The position numbers were made by a program, and so were the translations under genes. The notes beneath the pieces are model-generated. The model worked only from the letters and a program-made list of their open reading frames with translations. It searched no databases and was not told where the DNA came from. Below, piece after piece: positions 4,566 to 38,342 of a DNA stretch of 39,355 bases. The stretch is from Catajapyx aquilonaris (Eukaryota). Numbering within the stretch: the first letter of the stretch is position 1; every line of letters starts with the position of its first letter. The stretch is taken from assembly GCA_000934665.2 (NCBI GenBank), contig KZ538941.1:1-39355 (forward strand), in the 5' to 3' direction.

Positions 4566-5781
4566 TGTCGTGCGAAAGTACTGGCGGCGCCAGTAAATTA
4601 TAATTGTTAATTAATAGGGGAGGCGGAGTGGTGCTGCGGTAACGTATGCGCCCACGGATGTTAAGGTCCTGGGTTCGATCCCAACCCGGGGACACCCCCT
4701 TTATCTCGTGCAGAGTTCAGGGTCACCTCTGGCTTCGTCTCGGGTGGTATTTCCAACAGACTAAACCACCCGGGGGAGTTCACTAAAAATGGCCACGTTT
4801 AAGACATTGCACTGCACCTTGCACATCCCCTCCTGTCATCCTGCCCGTGGGCCCGGGCGCTACGTGTAAAGGCTCAAATGTACTTGACATAATAAATAAA
4901 GGTCCGTGCTGCATACCTCAGATGAGGTCAAGCACTACCCCAGATTATTATTATATTATTATTAATTGTTAATTAATAAATAATAATATAATGTAAATTA
5001 ATTAGGACATTACAACAAAACGACCGCTTCAATCACTCATTGCTTTACAGAACTGTGTCACCAACACCCAGCTGTTCCCTTAACGACAAAGGTCGTGATC
5101 CCCTCTTCAACAGAGACTATTTCTTCCACTACAGTGACGACCAAGGGGGAGTGTTATCTCACTTGCCTGTCGATGGCCACCCTCTCACAGTCTGTAATAC
5201 ATTGTTCCATGCACCGTCCTCTTTGCATGAGACTACCTTCTCACCCCTCACCTGGCCTGAGACGCAGGACCTCGGTTGGTTGAACCTAGATTTGGAATTG
5301 GCCCACTTCAAAGGTGCATGTGTAAATAATCACAATTTCCCACTTAAATTCCGGAATGTTATAGAATCACAATACATCATCATATCATGACGACAACTGA
5401 AGTGATTGTTTGAGTGTGGATGACCTATGCTCATGATGTCCTTGATGACATGCGTAATCGCAAGCAGTTATCTCTGCAACTGTTAGTGACATGAAGCAAG
5501 TTTTTCAGTTAATTTCACCTGCAGGATGACTGTGGTCCCATCTCTAATTTCACTCCTTGAACCCCACCACGCCACGGAGCCCTCACCCCCTCTCCCATCT
5601 CCAATTTCCAAATTTGTGTCCTCGACCTAATCGCGGAGTTGCCTGGGATGTTTGAATTTTGCGCGTCCCTGCCCTCCTGCTGTGACGTGGCCAGCGCGGT
5701 GTAGCCAGCTCATCCTGTCTCTCCGGGAGGGAAGATTGTGGCCGGCTGCCAATCGTGCGCCACCAGTACTTTCGCACGACA
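4566..5781. mobile_element. Non-autonomous TIR element with TGT...ACA termini in a (TA)n tract; superfamily uncertain (Ginger-like ends)
   Basis: TIRs TGTCGTGCGAAAGTACTGGCGGCGC (4566-4590) and GCGCCACCAGTACTTTCGCACGACA (5757-5781) match at 24 of 25 positions. TA repeats flank both sides. No transposase ORF recognised. Confidence 0.8.
4617..4962 (+). mobile_element. Full-length SINE family A copy nested in the TIR element, 16-bp TSD
   Basis: Same tRNA head and body as 3901-4298, an ATT tail, and TSD TAATTGTTAATTAATA at 4601-4616 and 4963-4978. Confidence 0.9.
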
Positions 5782-15418: not shown

Positions 15419-16543
15419 TCAACTCTGCTTCACTCTCTTACGCGGGGGTCCAATTGGGGGGATTTGTTGTGTTGCGAGTGCACGAAAAGCCTCAGCAATT
15501 AAGTGTGGGTGAGAATGGATCATAGACTTCCACCCTGTAGTGTCCATAACATCAGTTGCATGGGTGTTGATGAAGTCAATAGCTTGGGCTTTTAGTTGAT
15601 CAGCACTATGAAGGTCCGCCAGGATCAGAATGTCAGCAGCATTCTCAATGGACAAGTTGGTACACAGTGCCTCTTCACACATCACTTTTAGCCGCTCGAG
15701 AGCATACTTGTCAGCTGCCGCCAAGAGATCATCTGCCATTTTGTCCAAATTGACAGCCTTCCCTGTGTAAATGAATCGAAGCATCTCCCGCAGCACCTCA
15801 TGATCAACATCAGTAATCTCCACACGGTTGTGTTTGCGCTCCTCCATTTCATGTTCAAACATGGCAGCAAAAACCGGGCTGCGTGCTGCTAATATGGCCT
15901 TATGAGCTTGAAACTCCCTTCCAGAAACTGACAAAGTCACATCACTAAACTTCTGATTTTCAAAGAGCATGCCAAGATCATCCGACAGGCGGCATTCAGG
16001 CACCTTAAACTGTACTGCATTGGATTGACCTGAGATGTTTACACTGTCTGCTACAACACTCACTTCACAAAATATGGTCAACTTGTCATCTGGAAGAAGC
16101 CCATTAGCTTCATCAAATAAAAAGTCACGCCTAATGAACTTCTTGAATCCCCAATCTTTTCCCTGCACAAACCTGTAAGCTCTCTGGCTTTCCATAGCCT
16201 TTGTTTCCTCCCTCTTGGCATTAAGAATGGAGAACTTGAACTTGGCCCGCACTTCTGACTTGTTACAGGAGACTAGGAGTAAATATAATGACAGGTAGTC
16301 TTTGCTTTCTTCGTCTAATCCTTTGGGATTGACACGCAAGCACCACTTCAGTTTGTCATTGGCCCCCGCCGAAAATGTTGAGGACTTGAGAACCTCACCC
16401 ATTTCTTCTCTACAAAAACTGAAGTTATTGATGGTCCACATGTAGCTAAATTTCACTACCTTTACTTGTGTGTAACACCAATTCTCTGCCACTGGGGTGT
16501 TCACTTCAGGTGGCGGAGGGCTTGGCACTCGAGACACTGCCAT
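15419..16543 (-). CDS. rdx: Roadkill/SPOP, MATH-BTB Cullin-3 substrate adaptor, 374 aa, core CDS in one exon
   Basis: [28 protein letters not shown] start, MATH domain ([29 protein letters not shown]), BTB domain ([23 protein letters not shown]), BACK-like helices and C-terminal [12 protein letters not shown]. The exon extends in frame to a TTTCTTTCAG acceptor, exon start 16617. Confidence 0.98.
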
Positions 16544-17620
16544 GTTCGGGGTGTTGGTGCTAACTCGATCAGCTTGCCCTGCCAGGTTTACCGGATCTTT
16601 GACACCAGCAAAGAAAGCTGAAAGAAAGTAGATTAATGAATTTACACAGGTAAAACTTTCAATGACATGTTAACCTTCTGCTTCTTGGGTATGCCTTAAA
16701 ATGCACATATGGAAAAAATTCACATATTTGATTCACAGGTGAAATAAATCTTCTCAGTGGTGATATCACATGCAGAGTGCTAGGCTGCTTTGCCAAATCC
16801 ACTTTATGCTTGACAGTATACATGTGTAAATGTGGGCAAGATCATAACATGTATCACAATGATATTCAATGCTGACAGTGACTGGCAGAGCAAGCATTGC
16901 TGACAGGATTGGCTTGCGAGAGACTGCCAGTAGGTGGTTGTTTCTTCCCCAGAAATATCACACAAACCCGGTCATATGGAACACCCAGACAAGCATGCTC
17001 TTGATGGAGGTTGAAAATTTTTTTTTCCCAAGAGGAAAACTTGTTAAAATTCATAAAATAATTATTCTCATACTGCACCGGTTGTGAGAGAATCGTCTGC
17101 GACCTAACCTTCCATGGTCTTGCAGGGCATCCCTTGGCCAAACTTTTAAATGTAACCTTGTCTTTCACATGTCAATAATGAAACATCAGCAAGTGACTTT
17201 TGCTGACCCCTCCCCTGTAAAACAAATTAGCAAAAGGGGACCATCCAACAAGAGTTAAAACACCTAAGCCTCTACAGTGATAAACCCTGTCATTTTATAG
17301 CTCTACCTGAGTTACATATGCTATAGAAAAAAAAATATATCTCAACATAGCTAAGGATATCAAGACGGAAAAGAGGAATGACTCCCATCTTTATCCCCTT
17401 AAACCATAAGAAGAAGATACCGACAATAAATTGTTCCCATTCAACCTGAATATGGTCACCAAGGTTGTGAATAACCTTGCTTGACTGATGGGGAAGCCAT
17501 TGAATGCCATTCATTTTGCAACCAGGGTTGATATCAGCTATAAATAATGCAGCTGCCTGGTCCAGTTCAGTCATGTTTTGAAGTCCTTTTATGCATTTTA
17601 CTTGCACACAACCCCTTTTA

Positions 17621-19255: not shown

Positions 19256-21440
19256 TGCTTTGACAGGGGAACCCCCTGCTCTGACATACTGTTTAACCCA
19301 GATATGCCTGGAAATGTTTTTGTTGAATTTTTGAACTTTTTTTGTTTCTATTAGTTCATGTCAGTTCCCAAAACACAAAAATCGAGATAAAACATTTTTC
19401 TGAATTCTTGTTTGTGAGAAAATGGCAGTTCCCTATAATTATGGGATGCTAGGAAAATGTAACCTAGTATGGCTGTAACAGTTGTTGATTACATTACCAT
19501 GGCAACAGTGACATTCAGCAATATCCATAGTTTCATAATATCACCAATGATTGATTGTTGTCGATTGCATTGCCACGGAAACAGGCCGTGCAAAGAAGGG
19601 GTTTGTGATTGAGTAACAATCAACAACAATCAAGGGTTGTTGCAAAGGTTGCCATGTTAATCAATTGCCATGTAATCTCGTTTTAATTGAATGGATTCAT
19701 TAAAATACAGTTCAACAAAGTGTACAAAATCCACACACATACTTCACTTGCCCAAATGTGGGTGCATTTGCCTCTTGCGTTCACCAGAAGGGACACCGGA
19801 TTTCAACACTACTCTCAGACAAGGAAAGTAAAAAATATGCCTATATTTCCACATCGACATCATCATTCATAAGTTTTCTAAGTATTACAAACAATAAAAA
19901 CTGATAACACTAATCAATATTCGAGAATTGGGGAGGCAAAGTGATGAAGCCCATTGCACAACAGCTAAAATAGCTATCTTGCTAATATTTAAATTTGGAC
20001 AGTAATCAGTCAAAGAATTGCTTGCCTCTGATGTCATATCACCAATGCATGAATGTGTCTAAAAAATTTGGCAAGCTTATAACACTAAAACCCTATACTT
20101 GTAATTCAAAATATGAATTACCTTATACTTACCATTAACTTGTGAATAACTCTGGGCTGATAGTGTTGCCCAGAAAACTGATTCTAGTGCTTGACATCCA
20201 TCTGGTAAATGTTGGCTTTGATGACGACAATCCAGAAATGTTCTTGAAAGAGTCTCTTGAAACCTGTAAAAGTCATTGCTGTAAGTTCAGAATTCAAAAA
20301 CCCTGCTTCCAAGTTCCAAATTCTAAACCCAGGTTTCATCGTAACATATGAAACTTTCACTTACACTTAAAAATCTTTTACTGCCATTCTCCTTGGCATT
20401 CCATATAACATGTTATGCTAGGGTACATTTTATTTTTGTACAACAATGTCCAGTGATGGGTAAATTGTTCATGTAAAACTGGCAATGTTTCAATTACCAT
20501 ACCATTGCACAAAATCAAACTACAACAGTAGCGCAGTGATATCCTAGTTTTACAGAGAAATTGGAGCTCCTTACCAAATTCATCTATGTCATTTTGCTCA
20601 TGACTGGATCGCTGCAGCCAAATAGACAATTTGAGTTACAAGGTACTGACCAGTTCACTGAAAACAGTTGTTGATGTTTCTGTTCCAACATAATTATGCT
20701 CTAGTGGACTTTAAGACTAGGTACAAAGCACATGTATGCTAATGTATATAGTCGACTCCAAAATAAGAGCCTCAGTTATAGCCAACTTGAAAGGCTGGAC
20801 ATGGCATACTTCCATGTATGGCCTGTGTATTTGGATATAGGAAACCTCGGTTATAGGATACTGATTTCTGTGGTCCCTTGAAGTCTCTTAGGCTGGCCAC
20901 AAACAGGTCACTTGGAGTGAGGCAACTTGGTGCTGATATCCAAGTATCATGTTTGCCCGCTAGAGGGCAGGCTTGTTGCGGCCATGTGTGTTCAAGATTT
21001 CCCCAAGTTTCTTGAATGCAAGAAACCAGTCAACTTGTGGGCAGAGTTTCCTGAAACATGCACTGTTTTCATCCCAGCAGTGTTGCTCATGCAACAAGTT
21101 CCTCCCGAATTCCCCATTTGCACCCAGCTTTATATTCTGAATCGACTGTATTAGGATTGGAGAAAAAACACCCTTGGTTTTTCAGCTAATTTGCAATAAT
21201 CTTGCAACATCCATCACCTTCAGCTTTTTGGCAATGATTATACCTTAAAGCACACAGTGAGTGCAAACCCAATCTCCACAAAGAAACCCAGTGCATATCT
21301 GGAAATACTGTCTATTTCTGAATATCATCCCTACACTATTTTAAAATTGCATTTGTGGATAAACTGGAATGCACCATTTTAAATGTCTGGTGACAAGTAT
21401 CAATATGCATTATGCAATCACTTTGTGTCCTCTCATGGAG

Positions 21441-21754
21441 GTGCTGCCCAAAACAAGGGAAGGCTGTGAAGAAGGCTGGCAAGGCACAGAAAAACATATC
21501 CAAGTGAGGCAAACAGAGGACGTGCAGGAGGACGGAGAGCTATGCTATCTACAAGGTACTGGAAGCTGGTCCACCCAGGCAAGAACATTTCCTCAAAGGC
21601 CACGGCCACCTTCAACAGCTTCGTCAACGACATCTTTGAGCCCATAGTTGCCGAGTCCTCCTACCTGGCCCATTACAACAAGAGGTTCACCATCACCAGC
21701 TGAGAGATCCCGATCACTATCCAACTCTTGCTGCCTGGAGAGCTGGCCAAGCAT
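21441..21754 (+). pseudogene. His2B: Histone H2B pseudogene
   Basis: Across frameshifts it translates to ..[30 protein letters not shown]...[51 protein letters not shown]. The start is mutated to GTG, there are internal stops and indels, and it is truncated before the C-terminal helix. Confidence 0.93.
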
Positions 21755-24644
21755 ATCTCATTGGGGACCTCCGTGCAAGCCTCTGCCAACCCCTTTCCCC
21801 ACCATGGAGATATCCATTGTTCTATTTGAGATTACCGTACACCATTGTATTAAGAAAAGTCCTGATCTCCTCATGAAGGAATGCAAGCATACTTGATTCA
21901 CACCTGTCAATATATTTAGCCACTCAATGCTTCTATTTCTGTGGGAAGAAACCAAAGCAAATCCGACTATCTGGCTCTTAAAAGTTACATGGGTGTGCCA
22001 GATGGAAGTAGAAAAGATGAGAAACAAGGGAGAGGAAAGACTGGTATCCCTATTTGATGGTCTCCTACCCCACAAAGACATTTCCAGCTTCGGTGACTGT
22101 GCCAGTGGAAACGCTACTGCTGATATAGCTCTCTTGGAGTCACCAGAGAAACACAAGCCTCCCACCCCAGTGGTCATGGGTATGTGTGTTTGATGGTGGT
22201 GGTTAACACACTTGGTGCAAGAATCTCCTTGGCACAATAATGATATACTCGTTCAAAAGATGCAATGATACACACAGCTTGCATTGCGATATGTGAATGT
22301 TTTGATGATAAAAAATGTTGACAATCATCGTCATGAAAATTAATTATTACAGCCCCTCCATCCATGAAAGAGGGTCCAGTTACCGTACTTTCAGCTAGAG
22401 AATAGCAATGATATCACAGAATTTTCGTGTCGTCGTGCACGTGAATCATAGTGCTGCTGTCTAAACCCATTGATAATTACATTATGGAAGCTGAGTGGCC
22501 TAGTCAGGATATTCCCTATTATTCATGTAGTACATGACCAAATCTAAAATCCTGCCGTCACACATTGCAATGACACATCCCAATCAAAAATAATGCAGAG
22601 GTCTGGAAAGTGCAACACTTGGAACTGAAAAATTAGGTTAGATGTGACTTCACACGTTCACATATCCTATTTACTCGAATCTAAGATGCCCTTTCGTTTC
22701 TTTTTTAAATACAGGAAAAAAGGACCATGTCATTGCTGACATTGTTGACATTCATTGTTGCCCATTGTGCCATAGCAGCATTATCTGATTACAGAATTAA
22801 TACTTGATCGCATATAAAAGCTAAAGAGAACTTTTATCAAGGTTGATTATTGTGCCAGTTCTTGCCTGTCTCAGACCTACCCTTTTGTTTGCAAATTTAA
22901 AAAATCAAAACATTATCACATCGTTGCAACACCGGAGTCCAAACCATGGTCCAAACACACTGTAGGCACGTCTTTTGTTTTCTGATATGCATTGTGTCAG
23001 GGTCCAGAGATATGTAAGTACAGGTAGGCCTCATTTTATGACCCTGTTTTGCTGAAACCTAACCCTGTCGTAAAATGGGGCTTACCGCAGAGTAGAATTA
23101 ACGCTGCATTAATGGCCATTTCACAAATTCGCCAACCAGGAAGTTGGGGAAAAATTGGCCATGAGGGACATGATGACGAGAAAAATTGTCCCAAGAAGAT
23201 GAAAATGTGATGCCACAGATTCAAGGGTGTAACTTTATTGATTTTGAGGCAACTTGCTAATGCGCTTAATTTCTTTTTCATAGTTGAGCATCGTCGGATT
23301 ACCCTGATATAGCCAAGTCTCGTTTATTACATAATTTTTGCGGATTGATTCCACTATGTACAGAATTTGTTACAGGCTGAATTTGCAATACACCTGCACA
23401 GTGAAGAAAACTGGCCTGAGAGTATTCCAGCAGACTTCTTAACTGTGCAGGCATACTCCTAATTCCCACTGCTAACTGTAGGTCCACCATAACATAGTAC
23501 GCCTACATGACCATGAACGAATGGGTCATAACACCACTCCCAAATCACTAACTACCCTGTGTAACTTGAAACATGGCTTAGAGTAGTGGTAAGCCTAGTT
23601 CACATCTCTTATGTATGAGGGGTATAAGTTGTTGTAAGTTACATCACAAAAGTCTTGAACAGTCCTAGCAAGGATCCAACCCGCAATTAGCGAAAACATT
23701 AAATGGCACGTTAATTAGGAACACCCAGTTTAATTCAGCTGTCGACATGATTACAAAGTCAGTGTAATTTCTAATGCAACTCTGACTCCGAAGATCGTAA
23801 CTGTTTTGTGGGGAGGGAAGAGATGTTTAAATGAAACCCCTGTTTTGACGAAGCACCCCTTCCTTGAAGGCCACAAGGCCAAAAATACTGGGCTGTTATT
23901 ATGTAAAATTTTTGATGTACCATTGACAGGCATCAACATGTCCTCACAGCCAACATCCAAATGACCAACTGCTCATTACACAACGGAGACAATAATATGC
24001 ATCACATGCACAAATCAGAATGCAAGGACAATACAACACCTTGCCCTCTCTTCGAAATGCTTTAGGCCTACTGGGCGATACGCACAACTCTTGTTACCAG
24101 CATGGGCCTGGCGCAACACAGCTGCGAACCATCACAAAACCTTTGTATCCACCACAACACTGTTGCTTCTGGCACGACACCATTACATAACGCACACTAC
24201 CTCATGCCCACTCCTGAACCTAGGCCTGGGCACAGCATATGCAACTGGTACACACCATACCCATGCCCCCAAAAACTCACCTATCAGCTCCAAGCCTGAG
24301 AGCCTCCTCTGGCCTGCACATTCACCACACTTCCCAATTTTCTCGCTCTCTTTCTCCTGTCTTGGACTGTGTCCTTATTTTGGGTACAGCCCACCACTGT
24401 AGGGGCCACGGGGAGTGGAGAAATTTGAAACCGAGCAACGACCTTGGCCGGAGTGGAATGGGAATAAAAGAGTGTGGATCGATGTGGCAGCAGCTCTCCC
24501 CACCACCTCCTCCTCCAGCTCCCCCCCCCCCCTCCCTATTCAACCTCCACACCTCCCCTCCCCTTTTCGCTCTATCTCACCACCCATTTTCACTGTTCTC
24601 AAAAACCTCCTTCTGATATAAATAACAATGCAAAAATTGCTTAC

Positions 24645-26383: not shown

Positions 26384-27210
26384 TCTGGTGGGGGTGGGGG
26401 GGGGGTCCGACTGGAAATGAGCAGCCCAAATTTACTTCCATATGGGCTCAATGCGCAGGACCGTGGGAACTGCAAAGTAGACACATCTCCCAGGTGCAAA
26501 ACAACTGCGCACTTATTCCCAGATGTTAGTGATTAGTGCTCCTTCCTTTTGGAACTGCTCACTCGCTCAGTCGTCTTCTGAGTGTTGTTCACAGCAGTAG
26601 TAGTAGAAGTGTTTCGTCTTGGTTTCGTGTCATTGGTTATGTGGCTGCTGGGACAGTAATTCTACCATTGCGCTTTGCGACGCTGAGAAGTTACTAGTGG
26701 TCTTAGCAACGGAAGAAACAGTGAACGGTATGGATATTTGGCTCAAGACAGGAACGTTGAAAAAGAAGTGCAGTTGAACAGACATCTGGAAACAATGACG
26801 AAACTGTGCGTCAACCCAGTACAAGTTTCTGCAACGCGGAAGTTTGCGAATCTGTGGCACCGGAAGTGCGACAAGAATGGTTGATTATCTGGGCCTGGCA
26901 ACCTGTGCTTTGAAATACTTGATTCCATTTGCCACAACATATTTATGTGAAGCTGGTTTTTCAGCATTAACATCCATAAAAACAAAATACCAGCATCGAC
27001 TGTGTGTGGAAAACGACTTAAGACTCAAATTGACGCCACTTGTCCCAAACATTGACCACATGTGCGCAGGCAAGCAAGCACACCCATCACACTAACTGAT
27101 GGTAAGTGCTCACAATTACTATTATCAGGCAGAATGAGAATGGGGGTACAAATAACTGTCTTGACAAATTTTAAAAGGGGTACATGGCGAAAAAGGTTTG
27201 GGAACCACTG
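26384..27210 (+). mobile_element. Internally deleted hAT Buster/Charlie-family transposon
   Basis: Transposase N-terminus MDIWLKTGTLKRS at 26730 lies close to the C-terminus PFATTYLCEAGFSALTSIKTKYQHRLCVENDLRLKL..PNIDHMCAGKQAHPSH* (to 27095). The right TIR is AAAGGTTTGGGAACCACTG, followed by ATCTAGTA (nnnTAnnn, the Buster-type target). The left TIR is not seen and may lie in the gap. Confidence 0.88.
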
Positions 27211-27329
27211 ATCTAGTAAGTTGTTGGTATTGGCCCAGTTCACCCCACGTGAGTTTGCAAGAAAACAAAGAACCTTAAAGGGAGTGAGGATGTAAAAATC
27301 TACAAAGTACATACCGGTACAATAAATCG

Positions 27330-27475
27330 TCACTTTTTGGACAAATATGTCAAATAGTGGCAAGCAGTCCGTGCTGCCTCCACCTCTGCATCCTCATGTG
27401 ATGTGCCAGCAGTGCCATAGCACACTGCCAATGGGTCTTGCAGAGGACCCAGCCGGACCAGGCACCGGTATAAGC
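27330..27475 (-). CDS. Last coding exon: second half of dsRBD3-type domain
   Basis: Acceptor TTCACCTGCAG, phase 1. Encodes GLYRCLVRLGPLQDPLAVCYGTAGTSHEDAEVEAARTACHYLTYLSKK*, which aligns with the human TRBP C-terminus as I recall it (GLCRCLVELSTQPATVCHGSATTREAARGEAARRALQYLKIMAGSK). Confidence 0.9.
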
Positions 27476-30400
27476 CTGCAGGTGAATGCAAAGAAATCAG
27501 TCTTGCATGCTCTGTGAGAGAAACTATTTAAGGTGAGGTTAAAATGGCAGGCACTACTTCATCAAATTGCTAAAAATAATGGTTAGTTTCTTTGATAACA
27601 TGCAGAAAAAACCCAGATAAATGGGCAAATCACATCAATCAGTGATCTTGCTCCTTCATTCAATTGACTGATTGGTATACTCTACATGAACTACCAGTAA
27701 CTTCTCAATAGTCCATAACTATCGATAGGTTTTTAAAGAAGTATACAACAGCTCACCTGCTGTTGTTGTCGGCATTTGGATGAAAGCTACATCCCATTTC
27801 TCAGCGATCGCAATCTTTCTCAGGATTGTGGCAAAGTTAGGCGGTTTCTTCTCGGTGGCCTGAAAAAGATTTTTGAGTCGAAGAAATACATCACGGGAAA
27901 TGTTTAACATCAAGACCAGCACCAAATCACAACAGATATTTGCAAGTAAACAGGTGCCCTTTCAACAAATTCAAAGGCATCTCTCAAGAACATTGTGAAC
28001 AGGCTAACCATAACAGCTCTGATAGTAAAACATGAGAATAGGTGATATGACCTCAGAACATGAGCCAACAATGAATAAGCTTCATTCCCTGAAAAAATGG
28101 CCCAGTAGCCTACAGCTTCATAGTTTCAATCCCCCAAATAGAGAATCATCATTTACCCGCATCAAAGATGGTCCATCATTGACCTGCAGGGCCCACCCTT
28201 CCTTAATTTGTTCCTTATCCAACCAGTCATCTGCACTTCTATTTTTCAAGATATCCAGCAATAACTAGCATCAGCTAGCATGTAATCACGGCTAGCATCA
28301 ACCCTTTCCCCACTAGCATCAATTAATGCTGAGCTGTTAACATTGGGCCAGGCAGGTAGGGATTCTCCTCAATGATGGGCTTTGAGGTCTCACGTGGTAC
28401 AGTACCTTGGTTGGAACATTGGGATCTTGCACATACACCCCAGATGCCCGATGGGATGCAGACGTTGAAGTTGGGTCCCTTGGTTGTGAGCTTGGGATTG
28501 GCCCAAAATTTGTCTCTTTCCCGCATCTGCAAGAGTGCAGTTAAAAAATTAGCAAAATTGATCTCACAATACCGTATTACTTCATGCAAAGCAACATGCC
28601 GGTGTCGTCCATGGTTCATGTCCACCAGTTTAAAATTAAAAATTAAAATTAGAAATTATTCATGATCTGGTGGCAGCATACTAGGAATGCCAGTATGAGG
28701 CGAGGTTCTCACTTACATTAGCCTTTTATAACTTGATATTTGCTTGAAATCGAAATCCATGAATACAGGCTTGTATCGAAAAGGCACATCTTCAGAATCT
28801 AATACCGTATAGGCCTACAGTAGGCTATGTTCTTTTGAATCTTTTCAATTACAGTGTGTGACAATAATTTGTATGTGCAGTGCATTGTTGTGGAGTACAG
28901 CGATAACTTGATACTTTCACGATCCCCGCTTCGCTGAATTTCTTGGGAGATACAATTATTCGATATTAGCCATTTCATTTATAAATATTACCAATATTTG
29001 GATATTATTAGCTACCTAGCAGTGTGCCTGAAGTATAAAATCAATGAGACCTGCGACAGCAGACGATGGTATTGGTCATGCACTGTGCAACAGCCCTGTA
29101 CTCGCACATTTTTCACCATAACATTATTTCAGTATGGTACCACAAGAATGCAAAATTTTTTTGACTAGGATCAAAATGATGGAAATCTAGGGTTTATTGC
29201 AGCATGCCAGCTACCCCCGGGTTATACCAGCATACTGGTCAATCTTGTCTTATACCGGCATGCCGCTTTATGACAGGTAATACGGTAGGTGCGTAGGTGC
29301 ATTGTCAACCTCTAATTATGGCAAATCAATACATAGGTGCAAAGACTCCAAGTGGTTTGCCTTTCTTGTTCCCACAATTTTTAATCCTATGCAATAAGCA
29401 TAGGGTTTCATGTAAGTGACATCGAACTGCTGAATATGCTTTTGTGATTCATTTTGGTTCTTTCTACCCTGTGCAGCAGGATTGCTAGTTCTTACTCACA
29501 TAATCTGCTTTTGGTCAATTTCTACATATTTTCAGCAACACAGGTTGAAAATCTCATATCTGAAACCCTTATTGGGACAAGACAATTTCAGATTTTTCAA
29601 TAATTGTAATTTAAAAATGTCACAGCACATGTGGTGTGTATGAAAGGTTTGATGAATGTTTCAATAGAAGCAAGAAAACAGCAAACAGGAAACATAGGAA
29701 TTACCTTTATTGACTTTCAAAGTGCCCTCCATCAGACACGACACACTTTTGAAAACATTCGTAAAGCCTCTGAAAAATGTGAGAAAAATTTATCTTTAGA
29801 CCCCCCCCCCTCCCCCCTCCAGATCTGTTGTCACAAGAGCCTGAACCTCCACGACATCCACAAAACGCGATCCCTTCATGAATCCTTTAAGGCTCAGTAT
29901 ATGGTATCACTGTTTTGGATCAACCTCTGTACTACCCCAACCTTTCTCCTGTGGACTTCCTTTTGTTTCATTGTCTTTATGAACGGATCAAGCTTTGTGG
30001 ACATTCCGGCCTGTGCACAGCCATGTGACAAGAGATCTGGAGGGGTTTTTCTAACTGTTCTCAGAAGCTTCACGAAATATTTCAAAAGTGTGTTGTTTGA
30101 TAGCCTGGAGCACTTTGATGGTCAATAAAAGTCATTCCTATGTACCCCTTCTGTTTTGTTATTTTTATTGTAACATTCACCAAACTTTTTAGACACACCA
30201 CATGTGCTGTGACATATTTTAATTGCAAATAGTTCAATATTCCCATAAACTATTAAGGTAACTTTCAAACCAAACATCACATTTTAAGCAAAGTGGTAAG
30301 AAAAATACAGTGTACAGTAGTCGATTCTTTGGGGGAACTACCTAGTGAAACACCCTGTATTTCAAATATTTAAACTGTCTGGTTTTACCTAAAAAGGCAC

Positions 30401-33400
30401 AGTAGGAATGGGTCACCCTCAATAAAGGCAAGACAGCTTGCTTTTCCTTAAAAATAAACAATTCGAGTATTGCACAAAGAAGAAGGAACACTACCTCAAA
30501 ATCAAATAGGTGCATGGACAAGATCCCCCAGAATTATTTATGTTTGTCTTAGCTTCCAAGAAGAGAAACTCTCCTTTTTCACAACCTGTCACTCATGAAA
30601 CCCATGGGAAGGCTATAACCGCCCCTGTTTCATCTGCAACATTTGCACCATGTAAATCTAACACTGTGGGGCGCCTCTTTCCTTGACTCAAAACCAAGAG
30701 GACCAATTTTGCTTTGCTAAATCACCTCTATACACGTACACTCTCATGGAAGATCACACAAGAATGCATCACTTTTTTGGCCTATGACTTTATAGTTTAC
30801 AGTTGTATATTTTCTAATTTGTGCTTACTTTTTGCCTCAAACTTTATCATTATTATTTATTATTATTTTTCCACTTTGTCAATCCAAGGGGTGGGGGATG
30901 GGGCGCCCCCCAGTTGGCCAATATGTGAACTGTATATTTCCATGCACATTCCCACTTGCAACTTTTCTACTTACTTGTTAGTGAAACCCCCTGGAAGTGA
31001 GTTAATAGGATAACCCATTTGCATTTACTGGAGTAAGAACTGTCTGCATGGGAGGGCGCTCGATTTTCAATACGATATATCTTTCATTTTTTTAGACACG
31101 AAATTTTGCGCCGGGGCAGAGGGGCGGTCGCCCCCTCCACGCTACGCCACTGCTTCTCATCACTCTATGTCACCAGTCCCCACAGACCGCCTTCACCGCG
31201 GACCACAGCGGACCGCCTTCATGTACACACAGGCATGTTACCTTCAAAAATAGTTCACATAATCTAATAAGTAATCAGACTTACTTAAATGTCTTTTCCT
31301 TGAATTTTCCATCATCACTGTTCTGGTGACTCGCACCTGCTGGAGAATTATGGCTCACGCATGCTGTAGGGCTTGTAGCTGTTACACGTGCTGTAACAGC
31401 TACATTGCCTTGGCCATGGATACTTAAACTGGAAGAGCCATGTTTTTGCCTTATCATCTCATGCTGTAGGCACATAATCGGCCTATCTGGGGCTAGATCA
31501 CTGCGACCCTGACTTGGTTTCAACTCAAGCAGTATGATGACAGGTACCTCTTCCTTCATCCCCCAATTTTGCAAAGAAGGCTGCTGAAGATCTATGATGT
31601 TTGGGGACATCTTAACCATCCTCACAGCCGAACAATCTTTCAGTAGAGTAGCCACAAAATTTGTAGCTGCAGGTGACCAGTTGATACCCAGCCTGGAAAA
31701 GTCGTAGCAGTGAAGAACTGCATTATTATTTTCAGAAATGATACTATATGTTTTACCCATACATCAGAAAAACAATTAGAGGTTTTAACTACATTTTAAA
31801 AAATTGTGCTGCTCCTTTATAATGGCCACAATCATCATTGCCATCCCACAGAAGTACATGATTAGTGCAGTTAGCACTAACAGATTTTGTGTCTGCTAAA
31901 TTTTGTTAAGATTATCTCATCTGAGCCCGTCTCTTGGGTTTCATTACCACCACAATATGACTACAAATTTTTGAGAGTCCCTCAATACTCTTAAAAAGAC
32001 TAGATATCAGATTGTGTGGGAATGTACTGTTGAAGAATAATTAGGAGCTGGCCTGGCCGGAACGGCCCTGCAGCCCACCAATAATCCCATGGGAATGTAC
32101 TGTAGCATTGATCAACATTTTCTTGCATTTCATCTGCATAGCATAATAATATATTATAACCTCCAAAAGCTAAGTAAGACTGTGGAGAATACACATGCAC
32201 AATCCTGCCACCTGTCTATATACTACCGGGAAAAAACTGCTTGTACCCCTGCAAGAAGTGCCAATGCACGTGTTCCTGAATCAACTGGAAGTCGCAGCAG
32301 CTAGTTGCTAATGCTAGTTTGAGTAGTGCATGCTTCCACGTTCCACCTGCACAGCTATGGCACTGATTGGGGGATACAAGGCACTTTTTTCCAGCAGTGT
32401 ATCACCACAGTGAATCACTTTCTTTTGAATGAAGACCACCAGAGACTTCCCCTATATACTGAGTTCTCTGAAACACAAAAGGCTTTTCTTGCCAATCCCT
32501 GCCACAGTTTATAATCTACGTCGTACAAGCAAAATAAGTTGGTTGCACCTTACAAGAATCATTTTGTACTGTACATTCTTCATGTTTGTGGCATAAGGGC
32601 AACAGGACATGTTCATCATGTGACAAATTTCAATATAAAATCTTTCAATGTATTCCCAATTCAAGTACAATGCTGGGCAAAAAAAGCAAAATAAAAATAA
32701 AAAGCTAAGTTGTTAACCAAGCTAAAATTTTTCCTTTGCAGGTGTGATTGATAAGTAAAATGTACACTCACCCTGTACTCGTCTTTTGGGTGTGTAAGTC
32801 CACCATCTCATTCGTCGGTACCACACCAAAGAGCTTGACCACCATCACCTGGTAGGGCAAGCTCTTGGCCCAGTCAGGTAAACTCCTGATGTTGTAATCA
32901 GGAACTCTTATAGAGTAGCCTCTATCTACCAACATCACGGTGTACTCCATGGTATCATCCAGTTGATGCACCTCTTCCACAACAGCCCTCTGCCACTTTT
33001 TGCTGCTGCTGCCTGCATAAAATGCCGCAACCATCTGTTTAGAAGGAAAGGAGAGTGATATTAATCGCACCTCGGCAATAACAGGGGCACAAGTCCAAAA
33101 AGTCAATTTCACAGGAGAGCACTTTGAAAGTTGTATAGTGTTGGTATAGTGTTATCATAAATCAGGTATTGATGCAGCATTCGAATAATCAGAATTACTA
33201 ATTATTAATTTTTAGAAATCAGAATATGCATTCTGAATGTGCACACGGTCATGGACCCTGCTCTAGTAATAAGTCAAAATCGTCATTGTTGGACTTATGC
33301 CCCTGTTATTGCCGGGATGCGTTATAATAACCAGCTGTGATTTGACTGCTGATGAAGGAATATATGGCACCCACCTCTCTTTCTTCGGGCTCAATCTGGG

Positions 33401-35410
33401 CTGGTGGGTTCATCACATCCTTCTGGAGCTTTTCCTCCATCTCCTTCCGACTGTGGTCATCCTTCGTCTTTGTTCCCATCACTGATTTGGCCTCCTTTAT
33501 CCAAAATACACCTGCACTGCTGACACTCAGCACCTCTATGGGGCACCCATGATCCCACAGGGCTTTCTCACCATCTCCTACAGTTGGCAAAATCTTCTGT
33601 AAGATCTCTTCAGATAGCTGGAAGAATACAAACAATATGGCACATAAGATGCATTTTCCGTGCATTAACACAATCTCCCTGGCTTTTGATGATAAAAATT
33701 TTCTGTCAGCTGTATAATTTTATTTTATTTTTATTCATTTTATTTTATTTTATTTACCTCATGATACAACACTTGGTCGTTATACAGGGGGGTGGCAGAC
33801 CACCATACAGTTTTCTTAATGGTTTTTATCTTCAAACTCAGGTGCAAGGATTACTGGGAAATGGGGTAAGGGTTGGGGGGTTTGGGGAGGGGGCAGGGGA
33901 CACATGTGCAGGTGATTTGTCCAGCGGTGGGCCAGGTGCAGCTGTATAATAAGGATCACTGGATTGAACAACAACAGTGTGACCTTAATGTTACTCAGCG
34001 AGCCACATTACAAGGCACTTCCTAAGTATTACACTCCTTGCTCTGTCAAGGTGAAATACTTCCCAAATTTGGAACAATAAAATGACTAATTCTTCCTAGG
34101 ATATTGATTATGGAACAATAGCGGATGTTGGGGAATTGAAATGCATTATGGCATTTCGGTCTATTGTCTGCAAAATTAATGTCATGCACTCAGTCACTGC
34201 AAAGGTTCCAACATTCCAGGTGAAAGGACAAGGCACAAAATGTATGGGCGAGTGGCCTTCCGTTCGATATGCCTGAAAATGGGATATGTTGTAGCCCAGA
34301 CCGTCCTGATCAATGTTAGATAGGGTCATTTCGAGGTAGGACCTGGTAGGACCTACAGGGAGCGTGCTATGGACCTCTGAAGGTCATATGGGATATGATC
34401 TGGTTTTCCGCTCGATTTGCCTGAAAATGGGATATGTTGCAGCCCAGACCATCCTGATCAATGTGGATAGGGACATTTCGAGGTAGGACCTACAGGGAGC
34501 ATGCTAATTGCTATTCATCGAAGAGGCTACTCAATACCATAGAAGACTGCTGTGAGAGATACCTTCCTTACATTGACCCAATGAATGTTGAAGTGCAGCT
34601 GGAGGAAACTCCAGATGACAACCTTCAAGGAGTAGAATTTGAACCAGATGAATTTGTAATAAAGAATAATAGATAATTTAATGCAATAACCATTGAGTTC
34701 CTGGAGACAAGATTATTGTAGTCTATTACTCCCCCTATTACCTTCGGAGGTCATTAGCAGGCTCCCTGTAGGTCCCACCTGAAAATGTCCCTATGCAACA
34801 TTGATCAGGACGGTCTGGGCTGCAACATATCCAATTATCAGGCATATCGAACGGAAGGCCACTCGCCCATACATTTTGTGCCTTGTCCTTTCGTCATGCA
34901 TCAAAGGCAATTTTCCACTGGCAGCATGTAAAGGAGCAGGAATTAACTTTCCTTAGAAGCCAAATGTATACCTCAAAGTTCTCCATAACTTGAACCTCTG
35001 GCAACAATTTAGTGCAAAGTATATTGCGTGAACTGGAAATCGGAGCAAGTTTAGCTGGCCTGACTTGCACGCACCATCTTTACAACAGAGGTCAGTCGAC
35101 TGTTGCCAGTTGAAGTGAAGCTTTAAACATTAATCGGTCCCTGTCCGGTTAGGTACGGCACCATAGTTCCTGAACATTTCCTTGGGTTCCATAGTCCACA
35201 TAGTTCCATAGTCAGCCGGGACTGATGGAACGCTGTCTGCCCTATATACTGGCATGTCCCGGCTGCTATGGACTTTTCAACATTCACTGGACTGTTCCCC
35301 TCGCCCCATACAAGTCCCTGGAACATGGCACTTACCCGCATCCTCGTTTGCTCATCGCGTCTCTCCTCGTCCGCTCGTCCGAAGCCGTCAATGAAGGCCG
35401 CTTCCATCAT
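27330..35410 (-). CDS. Multi-exon gene: TDRD12-like extended Tudor domain + linker + TRBP/PACT/Loqs-type dsRBD3 (~452 aa, ~488 aa with an optional exon)
   Basis: Exons 35410-35336, 33617-33375, 33034-32772, 31692-31285, 28526-28406, [optional 28264-28157], 27859-27757 and 27475-27330. All introns are GT-AG with compatible phases (0,0,2,2,0,[0],1). The core model totals 1359 nt, ATG to TGA, with no internal stop. Confidence 0.75.
27757..27859 (-). CDS. Coding exon: first half of dsRBD3-type domain (alpha1-beta1)
   Basis: Acceptor ATCTTTTTCAG (phase 0) and donor G|GTGAGC (phase 1). Encodes ATEKKPPNFATILRKIAIAEKWDVAFIQMPTTTA, matching the (D/N)Y..LL.EIA.EQ.F.V.Y.DI pattern of Loqs/PACT dsRBD3. 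Confidence 0.85.
28406..28526 (-). CDS. Linker exon of the Tudor-dsRBD gene
   Basis: Acceptor TTTTTTAACTGCACTCTTGCAG, phase 2 as required by the upstream exon. Encodes CGKETNFGPIPSSQPRDPTSTSASHRASGVYVQDPNVPTK, then donor AAG|GTACTG (alternative CAC|GTGAGA, exon end 28394). Confidence 0.6.
29602..30230. mobile_element. Degenerate fold-back element in an intron
   Basis: Perfect 23-bp inverted pair ATGTCACAGCACATGTGGTGTGT (29617-29639 and 30193-30215), plus further inverted blocks (CACACTTTTGAAA with TTTCAAAAGTGTG; CCCCTCCAGATCT with AGATCTGGAGGGG). Confidence 0.8.
31285..31692 (-). CDS. Coding exon 4: C-terminal SN-like part of the extended Tudor domain plus start of linker
   Basis: Acceptor GACTTTTCCAG, phase 2, 408 nt open, donor AA|GTAAGT. 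Begins LGINWSPAATNFVATLLKD, the W..AA...F..LL signature of extended Tudor domains. Confidence 0.85.
32772..33034 (-). CDS. Coding exon 3: Tudor barrel
   Basis: Acceptor TTTCCTTCTAAACAG and donor GG|GTGAGT. Encodes MVAAFYAGSSSKKWQRAVVEEV..YTVMLVDRGYSIRVPDYNIRSLPDWAKSLPYQVMVVKLFGVVP, matching the Tudor pattern WxRA..V.xxD.G....V....IR.L......LP.QA....L.GV.P. Confidence 0.9.
33375..33617 (-). CDS. Coding exon 2: N-terminal SN-like strands and helix of the extended Tudor domain
   Basis: Acceptor GTATTCTTCCAG and donor GAG|GTGGGT, 243 nt open. IEVLSVSSAGVFWIKE matches the V.V..V.SP..FWV motif of extended Tudor domains. Confidence 0.85.
34222..34892. mobile_element. Non-autonomous DNA element with ~140-bp TIRs and an internal direct duplication
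   Basis: GAAAGGACAAGGCACAAAATGTATGGGCGAGTGGCCTTCCGTTCGATATGCCTGA at 34222 is mirrored ending at 34892. Segment ~34263-34362 is repeated directly at ~34413-34500. No clear TSD. Confidence 0.85.
35336..35410 (-). CDS. Probable first coding exon of the Tudor-dsRBD gene
   Basis: ACCATGATGG start context, MMEAAFIDGFGRADEERRDEQTRMR, and consensus donor CGG|GTAAGT in phase 0, matching exon 2. Confidence 0.7.
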
Positions 35411-35923
35411 GGTCCTGTATTATAATAATTATTTATATGACCTGAACAAAAACTGAAGGGAGGATGGAGTCGGGGGGCAAAGATTAACGCGGATTGAAGA
35501 CCCAGATGACACACAGACACCTATGGCCTCTTCACTGTTCCTTGGTCGGGGGTGGGGGTGGGAGCGAGGTGGGAGGAGAGGGGGGACGGATGACGTGGCC
35601 AGACAACACGGTTCGGCTCGTAGCCGCTAGTAGCTCTGCATCACTGGGCAATGGATGGCGTCTACTACATACGCTATGAATTTCAGCCAAATATTAAGGG
35701 ATATGTGCACAGGTACTTATTTTGTATGAAAATTTATAAGCACGATGTGTTCCAGTCTGAAATTTTATGGGATCGTATTAAAATAGAGAACTCATCCCAT
35801 GAATGCAGCGCCATCATCTTACTAACGAAATAGCGAGATCTGCCTGAGGATCTGCCCGACAAAGTAACACCACCCAACTAGCCGCAGCCCGGTACTTTCC
35901 AAATTTTGAAAATTGTAATGTCA

Positions 35924-38036
35924 TCTATACGTAGCCTACATAATGAGTTTGTTTGTGGAGTTGTTTGTGGCTTCGCTATAGAACTCCAGGGGAATGTCCC
36001 TACACTGCCTTAAACTAGCTCATTGGGGGTTACTTTTTTCGACGCATGTTTCAGCTTCCGACAATGAACCCATGACTCCGACAACACGCATAATTTCACA
36101 TTTCAAATATTCAATTATCACGTTTCTATGACATTTCAAATTCCCATGGAGATGCCCTCACTACACAGAAATTCGTCAGATTTTTAAGCAAGAATTGAGA
36201 CTTTTTACTACTATAGTATTGTTTGAGGGCATCTCCAAGGAAACAGCTAGTTCCAGAGGTGCATTGTCGGAGATATCGTGTGTCCCTCTTCTGTTTCACA
36301 ATGCCTCCAAAGAAGCGTTACACATTATTCCAATCTCCTTCTGCCAAACGCCAGAGAACTAAAAAGCAGCAAAAAACTGCAAAAGAGCGACATTCCCGTC
36401 TACAACTGAAAGTAGTAAGACAAGCTAAACATAGGAAAAAAGAAACTGCAGAAGAGCTCCTCTGCACCCTAAAGAGTCTCTCGATGTGCCATAAATATTT
36501 GGCCGTGATATGTTAAATGGGAGCCGAGATTTAATTCGGGCTTCGAACTTAATGACTGCACCTGAACTGAAATCAGCGAGACAAGCTGAACAGAGGCAGA
36601 AAAGAAACTTCCGAAGAGCTAGAGTCCCGTCTAACTGCAATCAGCCAGACAAGGCAAGGTAAGAACTAATGCATATCGACAGTGGAATCAACGGGCATTT
36701 ATATAACTATGACCCATAGCGACTATGCCATTGACGATTCCATTGCTATTGGTGCGATGATACAAGTATGTCACCGCTGCGGGGCTAAGAAATGGAGCAA
36801 CGAAACAGCAGGAATGTGCTGTTCTAATGGCAACATAAAGTTCCATTTGCTCCTGATCCGCCTGATGAGCCTCTAAGTTTACTCCTCACTGGCACAACTA
36901 AAGAATCCAGGCAATTTCTATCTAATGACAGAAAGTACTGTGCCTTTCAAATGACATCATTTGGGGCCAAGATTGTTACCCAGGTTGCATTTATACCTAC
37001 ATTTAACTACAGGTCCAAGGTCAGGTTTATCACCGGACTGGGACTCTACAGCCTCTTCCAAACGAACAGGCCCAATTTCTGCAGGTTTACTTTGTTGGAG
37101 ATCTACAAACAAGGAACACATGATCGAGTCTGAGAGGCTTTGTTACATTCGGACCCATCAAAAAGAGCTGAGATTAGATTCATATATTCACTTGCGCGAT
37201 GCCATCAGCAGCGATACCGCAGCAACAACTACGCATTCTTCCATCAAGACACTGGCGGCCCGAGATACGTATATGCATGGGCGTACACAAGATCCAATGA
37301 CATGTATGTCAGACACTATATGAAAGACCTGACTTATTCATTACCTTCACTTGCAACTCTAAGTGGAACGAAATTATTGTAGAAGAGCTTCTTCCAGGTC
37401 TAACACCTGAAGATAGACCTGATATTTCAACAGGGGTTTTCCATCTTAAATTACTTAAATTGATGGACCTTGTAAAGAAGGGTCAAGTTTTTGGACCTGT
37501 TCGATGTGACATGTACACTATTGAGTGGCAGAAGAGAGGACTACCACACGCCCATATTCTGATCTGGCTTTCTACTAAAATTCATTCCAATCAGATTGAC
37601 TCCATTATTTCAGCTGAACTGCCTGATCCCTCACTATAGACAAATACATTCTGAAGGCCACAATGGTATATCGTCCATGTGGCAAACTCAATTCCAACTC
37701 TCCTTGCATGGCAGGCGACAAGTGTACCAAAAGATATCCCAGGAAATTCCTAAACGAAACCCGGACAGGAGATGACGGATACCCTTCCTATAGATAGTAT
37801 AGAAGAAGCCCTCAGGATGGTGGATTCACGGCAAAGGTTGGTAGACATAATTATGTGGACAACCAATGGATAGTACCGTACTGTCCCTTGCTGACAAAAG
37901 CTTTTAATGCCCATCTTAATGTGGAATATTTCAACTCCGTTAAGTTCATAAAATATGTATGCAAATATGTAAATAAGGGCTCAGACGCTGCTGCTTTTGC
38001 TCTTCAACAACAAAATGTACACGATGAAGTCACGCT
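35924..38036 (+). mobile_element. 3'-truncated, decayed Helitron (5' end + Rep domain remnant)
   Basis: 5' end A|TCTATAC...GAGTTTGTTTG. Fragments in order: CHRCGAKKWSNETAGMCCSNG (Zn finger), FQMTSFGA, IESERLCYIRTHQKELRLDSYIHLRDAI, LFITFTCN, EWQKRGLPHAHILIWL (HUH motif), DGYPSYR, DNQWIVPYCPLL..AHLNVE..IKYVCKYVNKGSD (YxxKY). Many frameshifts; no helicase or CTAG 3' end seen. Confidence 0.93.
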
Positions 38037-38342
38037 GCAACATGTACCCATACTTGACTTCCCCATTGAACATGTTTCTTACACTAGTATTTGGTTATCT
38101 ATATTTTTTTGGTGGACTTACTGTTTTCCTCAGAAAAAATGTCAGTTGCCTCCTGTTGCCTCCGGTTCCACACGTCTTGTGTGACGGTCTCCATTTTCAT
38201 ACCCTGTTTTCCTCCATGCCATGGTTGGAGAAGGATGTTGTTCCACGACTGACGGAGTTTCATCATTGTTGGGTTCTAGTTGATGTGAGTGTACTTCAAA
38301 TCGGAGACAAGGATTGTGTGATGAGTATTGCATAAGCTATAG

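Follow-up and report, generated by a model that had tools for sequence, protein, structure and literature searches.

What is a single double-stranded RNA-binding domain doing in this window, a stretch of 39,355 nucleotides from Catajapyx aquilonaris, and what, if anything, does it belong to? The domain has the form of a third dsRBD (dsRBD3) of 82 codons, spread over two minus-strand exons (exons 6 and 7, table 1). The RNA-binding motifs GPxH and KKxAK are both absent across all 82 residues, as the first-pass annotation had it, and SHEDAEVEAA stands at 27401–27372. With neither motif present, dsRNA binding would be unexpected, as first proposed. The Loqs protein of this genome lacks the RNA-binding motifs too, having DKDAQSDAA at the KKxAK site, and the dsRBD3 of Loqs itself is described without GPxH and KKxAK (PMC4748816; PMC5716075). 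Since the absence of both is normal for the Loqs/TRBP dsRBD3 class, their loss here is unremarkable.

To what class does the domain belong? In a HMMER comparison of exon 7 (50 residues) with solved structures eight chains matched, the best at E 4.4e-4 and the range extending to 0.033; seven of the eight are TRBP, Loqs or PACT and none is Staufen. The alignment was read from the TRBP chains 4wyq_B and 5zak_B and the Loqs chains 4x8w_A and 8dfv_K. It places L (27461–27459), V (27425–27423) and Y (27356–27354) at the equivalents of TRBP L326, V336 and Y358, the three positions that had earlier been aligned by eye and are thus retained; the equivalent of H338 is Y, likewise in the genome's own Loqs. 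The identification of these residues is reportedly due to Wilson et al. 2015, as cited by a later paper. L326, V336 and Y358, together with H338, are indeed given as Dicer contacts of TRBP (PMC7055394). By its sequence the window dsRBD3 is a member of the Loqs/TRBP/PACT type B dsRBD3 class. A Pfam search detected neither of its exons, while the last exon of the own Loqs matches dsrm weakly.

From where did these exons come? The last intron in the window is 71–76% identical to the last intron of both loqs copies in the genome, and upstream of exon 6 lie relics of two more loqs introns, at 77% and 73% identity; the deletion that joins them removed the linker exon. At the protein level, 32 of 79 residues are identical to the own Loqs, with 26 of 45 in exon 7 and 5 of the 27 aligned in exon 6. 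On this homology the two exons are copies of the 3' end of this genome's loqs. The homology of the introns makes the domain a partial loqs duplicate, and the alternative of a Staufen dsRBD5 fails: it was rejected because the flanking introns are loqs introns and no Staufen structure was matched, a verdict that rests on introns and structures rather than on a Staufen tree. No counterpart of loqs exons 1–5 was found anywhere in the window, nor does any of the 20 genome matches to PF00035 place a dsRBD1 or dsRBD2 on its contig.

The last loqs exon has eight matches in the genome. One contig (C1732) carries a complete loqs with three dsRBDs. The likeness of the Loqs sequence suggests an arthropod. 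A second intact three-dsRBD frame is split over two contigs (L010 on C4616 and L017 on C8967) and is interrupted in its last intron by an inverted-repeat element. Between the two, 14 of 619 non-degenerate sites and 8 of 169 four-fold sites differ, and the second may be either an allele or a paralogue of the first. Several loose 3' fragments of loqs are also present. Near-identical copies of the last exon plus 3' UTR (L006 on C5243 and L007 on C6013) suggest element-mediated transduction; by eye, the C6013 copy sits behind SUMO-like exons. Extra loqs copies are reported to be rare across 300+ Drosophilid genomes (PMC12697358).

Table 1. Features of the candidate chimeric gene and its surroundings (window coordinates).
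Feature	Position	Strand	Remarks
Upstream segment, possibly borrowed promoter	35554..35813	-	73% like the 5' flank of another gene (C2846, C15441)
Exon 1 with start codon	35336..35410	-	homologue on contig C10032, same ATG and donor
Exon 2, start of eTudor domain	33375..33617	-	colinear with C732
Exon 3, Tudor core, no aromatic cage	32772..33034	-	Pfam TUDOR E 6.1e-7
Exon 4, end of eTudor	31285..31692	-	parental exon 564 nt longer; difference in frame
Repeat insertions, intron 4	28650..31160		further ones at 33064–33326 (intron 2) and 34222–34892 (intron 1)
Exon 5, linker	28406..28526	-	ends at proposed donor 28406 or alternative in-frame donor 28394; splice use predicted
Decayed 3' part of TDRD12-derived exon 5 (helicase start)	28147..28405	-	chimeric breakpoint near 28147
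loqs intron relics	27860..28146	-	intron after dsRBD2 exon and intron before dsRBD3 exon, deletion-joined
Exon 6	27757..27859	-	alpha1-beta1 of dsRBD3; strong divergence, conservative changes
Intron between exons 6 and 7	27476..27756	-	GT-AG; copy of last loqs intron
Exon 7	27330..27475	-	beta2-beta3-alpha2 of Loqs-derived dsRBD3; stop TGA 27332–27330

Is the domain an orphan, as it had first been called? Probably not. It closes a seven-exon open frame of 1359 nt without a stop, coding for 452 (or 456) amino acids, in which all introns are GT-AG and five of the six stand at parental positions. From 33703 down to 28147 the window is colinear with a gene on contig C732 whose layout is Tudor-DEAD-Tudor-Tudor, and the best whole-domain relative of that gene, P0036, is a Tudor plus DEAD protein (domain E 3e-18); this is the layout given for TDRD12 (PMC4712191). 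Homology to the C732 parent stops at the breakpoint, before helicase motif I, and loqs intron DNA follows. With the parental homology ending there, the DEAD-like helicase, the later Tudor domains and the CS domain are absent from the chimera. In alignment the eTudor of exon 3 has WQR and DRG where the canonical domain has WYR and DYG, so that the cage of four aromatic residues is absent; the N-terminal eTudor of the C732 parent is likewise without it. Taken together, the sequences indicate that the window dsRBD3 probably ends a young eTudor–dsRBD3 chimeric gene.

Misassembly of the TDRD12–loqs junction was rejected: contig C5636 independently joins TDRD12 intron DNA to loqs DNA, from which it follows that the fusion is real and predates the C5636 copy. 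A further candidate exon, at about 28800–28716, was also rejected, as it has an in-frame stop and lies within a repeat shared with C967. The N-terminal Tudor exons of the TDRD12-like kind occur a third time, in a frameshifted copy, on another contig (L025, C11038).

The promoter of the chimera may derive from a third donor gene, to judge from the segment upstream of exon 1. This segment resembles positions 5111–5352 of L036 (C2846), and L035; the gene concerned lies downstream of an alpha-COP-like gene. Farther upstream, broken remnants of a Helitron-like Rep/helicase are visible by eye at 36800–38200 (+), and could bear on how the gene pieces moved. At the other end, directly beyond the stop codon, are an end fragment resembling a hAT transposase and a terminal repeat present in multiple copies (26799–27216, +).

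If exons 5 and 6 are spliced together, which donor is used? Nine GT sites with at least 5/9 U1 matches lie between the two exons. Just two of them yield an open fusion, 28406 (5/9) and 28394 (6/9), both at the low end of the 17 donors from these genes (5–8 matches). Beyond 28406 the relic of exon 5 carries a +5 insertion near 28400, a +19 insertion near 28280 and stops at 28339–28337 in the shifted frame and 28325–28323 in the old one. Splicing from the in-frame donors would remove 260 nt, and all three disabling lesions fall there, with none in the other 1359 coding nucleotides. The +5 insertion is also what put the 28394 donor into phase. Two stronger donors, 28184 and 28157 (7/9 each), are new relative to the parent and are in phase with the dsRBD3 exons under the old frame; a stop at codon 392 now precedes them. 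It seems probable from this arrangement that the fusion began with 28184/28157 and then either shifted upstream or died.

Death of the gene is the first alternative to be weighed: a chimera once spliced through 28184/28157, killed recently by the exon 5 frameshift and stop, with the remaining frame as yet undecayed. That the stronger pair of donors is new, lies close to the breakpoint and fits the old frame speaks for it, as do the broken sister copies on C5636, C4107 and C4191. The confinement of the lesions to so short a segment argues the other way. So do the repeat insertions, one of them about 97% like other copies, which were seen in introns only and in none of the seven exons, and the retention of the ATG and of every splice site. 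We consider a recently dead chimera unlikely.

A second alternative makes exon 5 long, ends the protein at codon 392 and leaves the dsRBD3 exons as relics in the 3' UTR, so that an eTudor alone is produced. It is this form that the stronger donors yield. It sits poorly, however, with the intact frame and the two intact splice sites of the dsRBD3, with 3 nt that were inserted in frame into exon 7 here and are absent from C5636, and with the fact that the insertion breaking the long form itself created an in-frame donor. Although selection is clearer on the eTudor, as set out below, we judge an eTudor-only product improbable.

Could the dsRBD3 instead be made alone? An in-frame ATG at 27910, within the loqs intron relic and present also in both loqs copies, opens a stand-alone frame of 99 codons, which under its own promoter might supply a decoy or heterodimer partner of Loqs. 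It stands 17 codons ahead of exon 6 (16 in both loqs copies), and selection on the dsRBD3 fold would suit such a product. Against this, the ATG stands in parental intron sequence, before an intact acceptor; the 490 nt upstream of it hold no TATA, Inr or DRE-like motif; and the phase match and the intact upstream Tudor exons would go unexplained. We judge a stand-alone dsRBD3 very unlikely.

Has the chimeric frame been under selection? The exon length changes relative to the parents (−9, +3, −3, −564, −45, −9 and +9) are all non-zero multiples of three, not all of them assignable to the chimera lineage, as some may be parental. Among non-coding indels 10 of 38 are multiples of three, in a count made without the decayed relic and without the second loqs, whose comparison would be redundant. 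Were exons 2–7 neutral, the chance of meeting no stop would be 0.015 at 0.09 substitutions per site and 1e-4 at 0.2. For the eTudor, dN/dS is 0.31 (0.21–0.45), and outgroup-informative sites have changed at 13 of 70 in the chimera as against 17 of 74 in the parent.

Neutral simulation of the dsRBD3 gave a mixed picture. Large hydrophobic positions are still hydrophobic in 27 of 29 cases (P 0.001–0.004), the substitutions are conservative (BLOSUM sum, P 0.0003–0.008) and the frame is free of stops (P 0.016–0.028), whereas identity to Loqs at the amino-acid level is about what neutrality would give (P 0.10–0.57). The dN/dS comparison proposed at the outset was made, and its pairwise value of 0.58 (0.32–0.97) is one that a copy evolving neutrally away from a constrained parent would also give. 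On the internal branch dN/dS is 0.73, indistinguishable from 1 (p 0.37) or from 0.5, and branch-model values for terminal branches are unstable. The frame and the dsRBD3 fold look to be under selection, and selection is clearer on the eTudor than on the dsRBD3.

A dead chimera would be compatible with these dN/dS values, and the dsRBD3 taken alone stays stop-free with P 0.15–0.43 at 0.09–0.2 neutral substitutions per site. Most derived dsRBD3 residues are common to the broken copy C5636, and the signal on the fold may therefore be an old one. At non-degenerate sites the decayed relic (29/150) is as diverged as the kept exons 2–4 (110/507).

One feature of the family complicates such comparisons. 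Across window 27330–33617 and its relatives on C732, C1732, C5636, C4107 and C4191, the divergence of exons, four-fold sites included, is two to six times that of the introns beside them; against C4107, for example, the figures are 9/66 and 6/256 (p 7e-4). Four-fold sites alone exceed introns at 49/110 against 110/640 and at 16/38 against 80/399. The control pair of loqs copies has no exon excess (8/169 four-fold, 41/1019 intronic). As four-fold sites also exceed intron divergence, the introns are no clean yardstick, and positive selection is not claimed.

Does the dsRBD3 keep the face with which Loqs and TRBP meet Dicer? It had been proposed that the protein-interaction face is still under selection. 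For the fold this stands, on the strength of the hydrophobic positions. For the Dicer face specifically it does not. The L326/V336/Y358 trio survives in 7–10% of neutral runs from the parent sequence (P 0.07–0.10). Of 22 exon 7 positions, counted by hand, on which human TRBP, fly Loqs and the own Loqs agree, 15 are kept and 7 changed, against 11 of 23 kept elsewhere in the exon (Fisher p 0.23). Two residues that serve both the Loqs dimer and the Dicer-1 interface, and whose double mutation is reported to impair Dicer-1 binding, K460 and I461 (PMC4748816), are changed to T and Y. The lost linker matters as well, for in the account of PMC4748816 the linker before dsRBD3 raises affinity about 10-fold; the isolated Loqs dsRBD3 still binds Dicer-1, with a Ki of 43.6 nM. 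With retention of neither the trio nor the 22 positions significant, K460 and I461 replaced and the linker exon absent, the fold is conserved and special conservation of the Dicer face is unsupported.

Other residues of the interface vary. R354, described as important in TRBP (PMC8887487), is N in Loqs and T in the window dsRBD3. F419 is not kept even in the own Loqs. L426, which Loqs needs for dimerisation and Dicer binding alike (PMC4748816), has its equivalent kept. As for the partner, the search for the partner-binding domain of Dicer gave one weak exon match in the genome, the domain being split over exons.

The explanation we prefer, with modest confidence and on the sequences compared here, is a live, fast-evolving gene for a candidate RNA-blind eTudor–dsRBD3 protein-interaction adaptor. 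A partial duplicate of a TDRD12-like gene (exons 1–5) lies joined to a partial duplicate of loqs (its last two exons), from which dsRBD1, dsRBD2 and the linker exon have been lost. The gene would be transcribed and spliced from the cryptic donor 28406 or 28394, and its product would consist of two modules without RNA binding, a cage-less eTudor and a type B dsRBD. The latter would most likely act through the beta-sheet/alpha2 face around the kept L426 equivalent, the one surface that in Loqs, TRBP and PACT serves both dimerisation and binding to the helicase insert of Dicer. Given the loss of the linker and the drift of this surface, the domain would be expected to dimerise, homotypically or with the dsRBD3 of Loqs, or to bind one of the Dicers weakly; Dicer-1 activation of the Loqs-PB kind would not be expected. 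If the protein is made, the odds that some Dicer or Loqs binding survives are about even.

What might the eTudor contribute? Cage-less eTudor domains are described as binding partners by unusual surfaces (PMC12526068). A germline eTudor–dsRBD3 protein might dock on the Dicer helicase or on Loqs, and either couple Dicer/Loqs to a piRNA partner of the TDRD12 Tudor or uncouple the two by competition, a reading that we regard as doubtful, if worth entertaining. The second Tudor, the helicase and the CS domain of TDRD12, which are reported to bind PIWI, Exd1 and nuage respectively (PMC4712191), are all absent from the chimera, which makes a bridge between piRNA factors and Dicer a further step.

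How does the candidate adaptor compare with known proteins? With the dsRBD3 of Loqs-PB, TRBP and PACT (4X8W, 4WYQ, 8DFV) it shares L426/V436/Y458, the hydrophobic core and the position at the end of the protein. In contrast to them it lacks dsRBD1/2 and the linker helix exon, and an eTudor precedes the dsRBD3. From the own Loqs it differs also by N454T and by insertions of 2 and 1 residues. With TDRD12, BoYb, SoYb and Yb it shares the origin of exons 1–5 and an N-terminal eTudor without aromatic cage; the helicase, later Tudors and CS domain of that group, with their interactions with Exd1, PIWI, Vreteno and nuage, are missing. The predicted chimeric protein can be called neither Loqs nor TDRD12.

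Jingwei, sphinx and Sdic are young chimeric genes that arose by partial duplication and exon shuffling. The present gene resembles this type in its two parents, its predicted new splice junction at a cryptic site, its fast early protein change and its broken sister copies. It is unlike the type in being a fusion at the DNA level that keeps introns, and in uniting a gene of the piRNA pathway with one of the miRNA pathway. The loqs2 gene of Aedes is, as described in PMC10809485, likewise a lineage-specific partial duplication of loqs that evolves faster than loqs; it comprises two dsRBD1 copies and no dsRBD3, whereas the chimera has dsRBD3 only, fused to another gene. A functional analogy, carrying no claim of homology, may be drawn with ERI-5 of C. 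elegans, a Tudor protein that is reported to have no clear aromatic cage and to connect partners with Dicer, which it binds through its Tudor domains; it has no dsRBD (PMC13284205).

Has such an architecture been met before? We found no paper on an eTudor–dsRBD3 combination, and papers on loqs duplicates, by their titles and the opening of their abstracts, supplied none. Against a protein collection, exon 7 gave 43 candidates and the Tudor exon 26; none of the former reached E ≤ 0.1 and none of the latter E ≤ 0.01, both being weak evidence. In a library of 1.84 billion proteins 52 Tudor proteins matched, with identity no higher than 39%, and a dsRBD3 query matched none of the 52. An atlas search with exon 4 returned low-recognition, unrelated matches only. 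The domain type and its lack of RNA-binding motifs are textbook; the novelty lies in the setting, where an eTudor of the piRNA pathway and the Dicer-binding domain of Loqs are joined in a lineage-specific fusion.

If it is expressed, the gene offers a natural test of whether a dsRBD3 can serve as decoy or adaptor when RNA-binding domains are missing, and of the role of the cage-less first Tudor domain of TDRD12. Should docking on Dicer or Loqs prove true, it would be a naturally evolved cross-pathway adaptor or decoy, and would reveal a partner of that first Tudor domain. If it is not expressed, it is one further decaying patchwork duplicate.

Elsewhere in the window an intronless open frame of 416 codons occupies 15419–16669 (−). 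We take it to encode a MATH-BTB protein of the SPOP/roadkill type; it is possibly a retrocopy or a naturally intron-free gene. Frameshifted fragments resembling histone H2B were recognised by eye at 21363–21876 (+).
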